A DNA stretch of 62,515 nucleotides, the filler included, from Acidimicrobiia bacterium (GTDB taxonomy: Bacteria; Actinomycetota; Acidimicrobiia; Spongiisociales; JAHEDJ01): the NCBI GenBank assembly GCA_029210695.1. It is 4 parts of 4 records of this genome, joined end to end, with 100 filler letters (N's around TTAATTAATTAA, not from the genome) between each part and the next. Parts side by side here need not be neighbours in the genome. Positions count along the whole stretch, not along the records: positions 18,169 to 35,738 come from JARGFH010000066.1; 3 more parts are not named here. One strand, 5' to 3'. A program made the position numbers and the translations under genes. The notes under the pieces are model-generated. The model was not told the DNA's origin, made no database searches, and was given only the letters and a program-made list of their open reading frames with translations. Position 1 is the first letter of the stretch, and the number at the start of each line of letters is the position of its first letter. Positions 27,748-28,305 of the stretch are shown one piece after another.

Positions 27748-28305
27748 ATGCGCGCGACGTGGCAACGATGGCGGGTGATTTGGGTGGCTGCCGTGGTGGT
27801 GGCGATGGCTCTTGCCCTGACCGGTTGCGGGGACACCGCTCAGGACCGAGCGCCGAATTTCTCGTTGGACAACGCCCTGGGCGCACCGGTGGCGTTGACC
27901 GACTATTCGGGAACCCCGGTCCTGTTGTTCTTCCACATGGCAGACGGCTGACCGCCGTGCATGCAACAGATCGTGGATCTGGAAGTTGATGCAGGGTTTC
28001 AGGCTCTGGGCGTAGAACTGGTCTCCATCGCGTTCGATGATGGGGCAACGCAGAAGCAAGCAGCCGAGGCGGTAGGAGTGGTCGATACACCTATGTTGGT
28101 TGACGCCGATCACAGCGTCTCGGAAGCCTACGACGTGCTGCAGTGGGCTGTTGCCACCGGCGAACCCGGGCACACGTTTGTGTTGGTCGACGGCGACGGC
28201 GGTATCGCCTGGCTTCGCGATTATGGAGCCCAGGAGAACGGCGGCTCCATGTACGTGGAGCCTCAGGAACTCGTCGACCAAATCGACGTCGCATTGAATG
28301 GGTGA
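27748..28305 (+). CDS. Selenocysteine-containing AhpC/TSA (redoxin)-family lipoprotein, UPPC motif
   Basis: ORFs 27712-27951 and 27961-28305 are in frame; joined they read APNFSL...PVLLFFHMADG-U(TGA 27949)-PPC-MQQI...LVSIAFD...TFVLVDGDG; LALTG-C lipobox. Confidence 0.85.
27958..27993 (+). promoter_or_regulatory. Bacterial SECIS-like hairpin
   Basis: Upper stem CAGATC/GATCTG with GTG loop starting 22 nt after the UGA; lower stem TGCAT..CAAC/GTTG.ATGCA. Confidence 0.65.

Follow-up and report, generated by a model that had tools for sequence, protein, structure and literature searches.

Gene organization and protein architecture

The window, i.e. the whole stretch of 62,515 nucleotides analyzed here, stems from the Acidimicrobiia bacterium assembly GCA_029210695.1 and joins four contigs with N spacers at 18069-18168, 35739-35838, and 53395-53494. 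The gene under study lies well inside one of these contigs (C144) of the 3.9 Mb genome. Its frame contains a single internal TGA, which corresponds to residue 68 in the context PVLLFFHMADG*PPC (the asterisk denoting the TGA). The features of the locus are as follows.

27737-27740, plus strand: GGAG, a likely ribosome-binding site judging from the sequence, with the ATG 7 nt further on
27748-28305, plus strand: whole coding sequence, 185 aa if the TGA is read as selenocysteine (Sec); the stop codon is a second TGA
27748-27828, plus strand: predicted lipoprotein signal peptide with the lipobox LTGC (residues 24-27), from the sequence and the presence of LspA in the genome
27826-27828, plus strand: Cys27, predicted lipid anchor according to the lipobox
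27934-27939, plus strand: His63-Met64, invariant within the Sec clade (22 of 22 rows); possible extra metal ligands
27949-27951, plus strand: in-frame TGA, almost certainly Sec68, position one of U-P-P-C, from the frame, orthologues, and alignment
27954-27997 (approximate extended limits), plus strand: bacterial SECIS hairpin, from covariation and the constraints of a published model
27958-27960, plus strand: Cys71, position two of UxxC, invariant in the family alignment
27967-27972 paired with 27976-27981, plus strand: conserved SECIS core stem CAGATC/GATCTG with the loop GUG at 27973-27975
28171-28173, plus strand: His142 (PGHTF), in the register of the peroxiredoxin Arg and the thioredoxin cis-Pro; conserved in 101 of the 102 family sequences aligned
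28249-28251, plus strand: Met168, possible metal ligand; 100 of 102 aligned family members

The gene is flanked by a 1595 aa gene on the minus strand (22794-27581), which is transcribed away from it and which we take to be NAD-glutamate dehydrogenase-like. The downstream neighbours at 28329-34647 on the plus strand include a Sir2 gene (PF02146) followed by a weak NIPSNAP-like gene; further genes in this stretch are presumably purN-, purH-, folD-, and icd-like. The position between the dehydrogenase-like gene and sir2 is common to three relatives of the same genus.

The original prediction had described two ORFs parted by one TGA at the first position of a CxxC site, both halves of an AhpC/TSA fold being intact, and a lipobox. 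All three elements were recovered in a single frame with the motif G-U-P-P-C. The read-through protein matches PF00578 (AhpC-TSA) across the TGA, from residue 32 to 154, with 80.4 bits at a cut-off of 26, and structure prediction from 102 aligned rows with Cys substituted for Sec gave a confident thioredoxin-like model (pLDDT 93.8). A lipobox was present in 20/20 parsed loci; in the second set of 89 distinct loci described below, 78 were recognized by pattern and 10 more by eye, the last locus being truncated. Signal peptide, lipobox Cys, and an LspA encoded in the genome occur together, from which we infer lipidation and export via the usual lipoprotein route. The product is thus predicted to be a membrane-anchored, outward-facing thioredoxin-fold protein.

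The in-frame TGA as a selenocysteine codon

We consider it almost certain that the in-frame TGA is read as selenocysteine. The genome encodes, all above cut-off, adjacent selA and selB genes on contig C160, selD on contig C94, whose own frame is also interrupted by a TGA, and on contig C66 a tRNA-Sec (anticodon UCA), i.e. the complete set that the original prediction had expected elsewhere in the genome. TGA is the main stop codon (1044 of 1663 training frames) and RF2 is encoded, which indicates site-specific recoding rather than another genetic code; the only UCA tRNA of the genome is the tRNA-Sec.

The codon was TGA in 26/26 genome loci that cover it (23 of them distinct, the window's gene among them; one further locus starts past the codon and is outside this count). 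The same was true for 89/89 distinct loci of a second set of 99, which was made up of 17 loci from one Chloroflexota family, two paralogues, and the top 80 out of 317 matches in metagenomes, and which had been retrieved with patterns that exclude the codon itself. A sequencing error is therefore not the explanation, since orthologues retain the TGA. In the homologue comparison that the original prediction had called for, this column is occupied by Cys in each of the 80 aligned full-length relatives that lack the TGA; one database protein of the Sec clade (P0014) also carries Cys. Contigs of relatives in four sequencing runs pile up on the TGA and the hairpin, with no other letter at the codon among the rows listed; this concerns the DNA and carries no information on expression or habitat. 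Of the genome's own sequence words, less than 10% were present in each of 12 runs. We found selA above cut-off in 23/23 other carrier genomes (5/5 and 18/18); this adds little, because the background in the same order, including the unpublished genome G021, is already 53/61.

It is very improbable that the TGA is a true stop, be it in a pseudogene or between two genes with a restart at Met72, or that it encodes Trp under another code. An ATG does follow three codons past the TGA in 80 of 107 loci, but the other 27 have no Met at the restart position; moreover, the two halves jointly form one confident fold, and TGA and hairpin are conserved across two phyla. A Trp is found at this column in a few database entries, but their source contigs measure around 900 bases, and a wrong code applied by the gene caller is the probable cause; the stop codon usage, RF2, and the tRNA complement described above likewise speak against Trp.

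A conserved SECIS hairpin downstream of the TGA

The loop of the hairpin is GTG, its first G being located 22 nt past the TGA codon, as originally predicted. The published bacterial SECIS model, as given in PMC13188914, has a loop of 3-9 nt, an upper stem of 4-16 bp, G (often GU) at the first loop position, a spacing of 16-37 nt, and an MFE of at most -7.5. With a loop of 3, a stem of 6, GU, a spacing of 21, and -18.3 kcal/mol, the hairpin falls within all of these ranges, which, together with compensatory and mostly synonymous covariation, answers the bSECIS check proposed in the original prediction.

Stability compared to shuffled sequences was unremarkable on its own (z = -0.67), and a loose hairpin-plus-motif filter was unspecific, with 367 of 40,599 candidate TGA sites passing genome-wide. 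Genome scans by motif-plus-hairpin and by codon usage returned mostly false hits and were rejected. The hairpin stands above chance because relatives conserve it and show covariation in it. All six core pairs are intact in 138/138 cells of 23 loci, a value reached in 0/500 shuffles; two of the core pairs change on both sides among these loci, and no slid register comes near. The third position of the Gln74 codon and the first position of the Leu78 codon, both synonymous sites, covary over 107 distinct loci: CAG-CTG occurs 81 times, CAA-TTG 25 times, CAG-TTG once, and CAA-CTG never. The CAA-TTG form appears in at least two separate branches, although the loci are related and hence not independent. 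Among 502 covarying pairs, the top scores of 0.92-1.0 belong to +19/+27, +18/+28, and +15/+31, which fall into a single helix register; the next pair reaches 0.5.

Annotation and relation to known selenoproteins

The original prediction had also anticipated that automated annotation would split the gene. Accordingly, fragments of 100-119 aa make up 115 of the 120 top-ranking database hits, and N-terminal halves ending in FHMADG are also present in databases. GenBank labels such C-terminal halves 'peroxiredoxin family protein'. This is a common annotation error: a family of Acidimicrobiia and Chloroflexota is deposited, almost without exception, as a half protein that lacks the catalytic site and bears the name 'peroxiredoxin'. 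The family also provides a clean SECIS supported by covariation.

The novelty of the find had been overrated in the original prediction, since selenoproteins of this class are catalogued. Table 1 of PMC13188914 lists predicted 'Prx-like thiol:disulfide oxidoreductase' selenoproteins (PF00578, UxxC/UxxU; reference WP_010940744.1) and a 'Redoxin family protein' (PF08534, UxxC). UxxC selenoproteins of PF00578/PF08534 also appear as predicted families in PMC1794560, and a 'Prx-like 1' selenoprotein in PMC2398784. There is precedent for exported selenoproteins, including the Sec form of a lipoprotein (10.1101/2022.07.06.499078), and for Sec use in marine Actinomycetota (10.64898/2026.04.03.716425). 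With its PF00578 domain, a UxxC motif starting with Sec, and an intragenic SECIS, the window's protein fits the published description of the Prx-like UxxC selenoproteins, which are domain-level bins of predicted proteins with putative functions. BSepDB, with 57,630 entries (PMC13326102), may already bin these genes; a motif search of the deep-Sep supplement returned no family member, and a search of openly accessible literature listed no publication on the present subfamily. The class is known; what is added here is a subfamily without curated entry, in which His142 takes the Arg/cis-Pro position. The selenoprotein reading of the original prediction stood, and His142 and the copper link described below had escaped it.

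A conserved histidine at the Arg/cis-Pro position

Beyond the Sec clade, the family extends to a wide range of CxxC proteins sharing the signature F..G..CxxC...GH(T/S)F...W...Y...M. Inspected Cys relatives have an N-terminal membrane helix and the Sec clade a lipobox. None of 16 proteins tested, among them two neighbour proteins and two distant hits, reached an NCBIfam cut-off, and the window's protein was far below every one, also those of selenoprotein models. Viral contigs gave two weak, distant hits only. In a quick tree, its root not established, one branch sets the 22 Sec rows apart, two Cys rows falling on the same side. Another branch of the His family (L093 and L099, on C58 and C98 of G264) likewise bears a TGA, with YFYEHAG-U-GPC ... 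AHSF and its own hairpin; it is anchored by a membrane helix, has no lipobox, and is possibly an independent Cys-to-Sec switch.

His142 is present in 22/22 Sec rows and 79/80 Cys rows. Counted back from the D-x-x-G turn, it shares its place with an Arg in the genome's BCP/AhpE-like proteins and with a Pro in its TlpA-like proteins, and in an HMMER alignment of a Cys relative with Bcp 2ywn, the His of the former pairs with the Arg of the latter. A conserved Pro is located two residues ahead of His142; mafft and two hhalign runs align it, with gaps, to the cis-Pro, and on this basis it could take the cis-Pro role. In peroxiredoxins, an Arg occupies the cis-Pro position, and a cis-Pro may prevent metal binding according to PMC2757866, which cites Su et al. 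2007 for the latter. Structural comparison ranked peroxiredoxins first (Z 19.1), followed by ResA (16.9) and, lower, Sco proteins (14.0 and 13.0).

Gene neighbourhoods of the family

Of 107 distinct Sec loci, 26 have at least one gene for a copper ATPase, CopZ, CsoR, or a multicopper oxidase (together termed copper genes) no more than 4 kb away. Where at least 3 kb of flank was available on both sides, the number was 15 of 45, compared to 1.5% of the own genome. Five arrangements were seen: a csoR-copZ-copA operon, a CopB-type ATPase with cytochromes c, copZ directly upstream, and a multicopper oxidase either downstream or upstream. Mapped onto the tree with 56 scorable Sec loci (51 of the 107 were left out as too short to score negative), the copper-neighbour label changes nine times. 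Of the 45 fully flanked loci, 11 have cytochrome c genes at a distance of up to 4 kb. The window's gene has no copper neighbour, and the same holds for 8/8 scored loci of the clade that contains its closest relatives.

The CxxC relatives have a different setting. Within 1.5 kb flanks, a CcdA-like gene adjoins in 17/17 parsed loci (one weak locus remained unparsed, outside the 17), with a Glrx-like gene in 14 and a cupredoxin in four. The Cys paralogue of the window's own genome is part of a Cu-ATPase/MerR/cupredoxin cluster, and among the wider loci of Cys relatives that were read, a P1B ATPase gene belongs to the cluster in this genome and two relatives. In contrast, ccdA was absent within 4 kb from 45/45 fully flanked Sec loci, and of 25 genomes carrying the Sec gene, only 3 yielded the close CcdA-like orthologue, namely those in which a Cys paralogue is also encoded. 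The CcdA-like partner of the Cys relatives (L070:5564-6940 and L073:12510-13439) has double cysteines at each of its two conserved sites, APCC and CCAP; three of four such proteins miss Pfam DsbD_TM and one passes it.

A promoter scan found none. A CsoR-box pattern gave 2/91 upstream hits, which is uninformative, as the pattern did not recover csoR operons used as a positive control. Just upstream of csoR at two loci (L053:802-1422 and L257:1245-2000), we observed a second split candidate selenoprotein, a thioredoxin-like lipoprotein with FFAHW-U-xTC; it belongs to the same Anaerolineales copper operon, in which two candidate Sec lipoproteins thus flank csoR-copZ-copA.

A putative Sco-like copper site and alternative functions

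Since a His replaces the Arg or Pro of relatives and copper genes are frequent neighbours, the protein may well handle copper, and we favour, with a confidence that falls somewhat short of even, a Sco-like copper site formed by Sec68, Cys71, and His142. Su and colleagues reportedly found in 2007 that a His at the cis-Pro position favours copper. From the strand register, His142 would be adjacent to Sec68. In the proposed mechanism, the UGA is almost certainly recoded as Sec via the adjacent SECIS hairpin to yield one predicted lipid-anchored, outward-facing thioredoxin-fold protein, in which Sec68, Cys71, and His142 would bind copper in the manner of Sco, perhaps together with Met168, His63, or Met64. 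The site might receive, buffer, or pass on copper exported by P1B ATPases, with multicopper oxidases or cupredoxins as examples of recipients, and selenium might maintain its reduced state where the Cys relatives have a dedicated CcdA-like partner.

The copper site of Sco is Cys-Cys-His (PMC5668878). With Sco1/SenC (PF02630), the window's protein shares the predicted membrane-anchored, outward-facing thioredoxin fold, a Cys pair (here Sec and Cys), and the copper context of the family. Its distant conserved His may correspond to that of Sco, which sits two residues earlier in the sequence register. It differs in having UxxC instead of CxxxC and in lacking a PF02630 match. Further observations weigh against the copper reading. 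The window's gene itself lacks a copper neighbour, as do 30 of the 45 fully flanked Sec loci. Of the 26 positives, 13 represent one operon type, one (L222) is a 26% match, and kin are not independent. One of the genome's nine other PF00578 genes also lies in such a cluster, and redoxin genes often occur in copper clusters anyway. In addition, peroxiredoxins and ResA outrank Sco structurally.

Two other functions have to be weighed against copper binding. Rather unlikely in our view is a ResA/TlpA-like extracytoplasmic disulfide reductase, which would pass electrons from a CcdA-type protein to the thiols of apo-cytochrome c or copper proteins, the His merely tuning the site. Fold, CxxC-type motif, and membrane anchor resemble those of ResA/TlpA/CcmG, ResA is the best PDB sequence match, and both the CcdA-like gene next to the Cys relatives and the cytochrome c genes near Sec loci would suit this function, as would the oxidation of surface thiols that copper stress is generally known to cause. 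However, the family has a His in the cis-Pro register and an insertion before that strand, no W precedes the motif, and the score is low (35 bits at a family cut-off of 170), although the Pro two residues earlier leaves some doubt. The Sec members, moreover, have no neighbouring ccdA and rarely a close CcdA-like orthologue in the genome, for which a generic CcdA may substitute.

A surface peroxidase, whose selenolate would reduce peroxides with Cys71 as the resolving residue in glutathione-peroxidase-like chemistry, appears less probable still. The name 'peroxiredoxin' of the database fragments and the structural ranking point in this direction, as the solved structures most similar in fold are BCP/PrxQ/AhpE proteins, with Z scores of 17.9-19.1 at roughly 20% identity. 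Yet the window's protein lacks the PxxxT/SxxC motif, has His in place of the catalytic Arg, carries Sec at the first rather than the peroxidatic position, and is predicted to be exported; all peroxiredoxin models remained far below their cut-offs.

Returning to copper binding, we tentatively propose, with less confidence than for the site itself, a widespread and uncatalogued family of surface copper chaperones, in which a His at the Arg/cis-Pro position converts a peroxiredoxin/ResA scaffold to a Sco-like site, at least one and probably two branches use Sec as a copper ligand, and the dedicated CcdA partner has been shed. If the copper reading holds, the family would provide a natural Se-Cu site in bacterial copper handling, located outside the membrane and with natural Cys counterparts for direct comparison. 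It would then allow testing the reasons for the replacement of Cys by Sec in metal sites, and whether a protein becomes independent of its reducing partner through Sec.

Additional selenoprotein candidates and gene copies

The genome contains further redox genes with an in-frame TGA (C132:14871, C151:14955, C30:1102 and 408, C101:5424, C170:29073, and C94:14558). They comprise Prx-like, SelL-like, two thioredoxin-like, TlpA-like, SelW-like, and SelD proteins, most with downstream hairpins. In one other genome (G077), two further near-identical copies of the 5' part of the Sec gene are located at contig ends (L149 and L150), which suggests a recent duplication. Contig ends of 77 bases in the window are common to many other contigs, as expected for assembly breaks at repeats.
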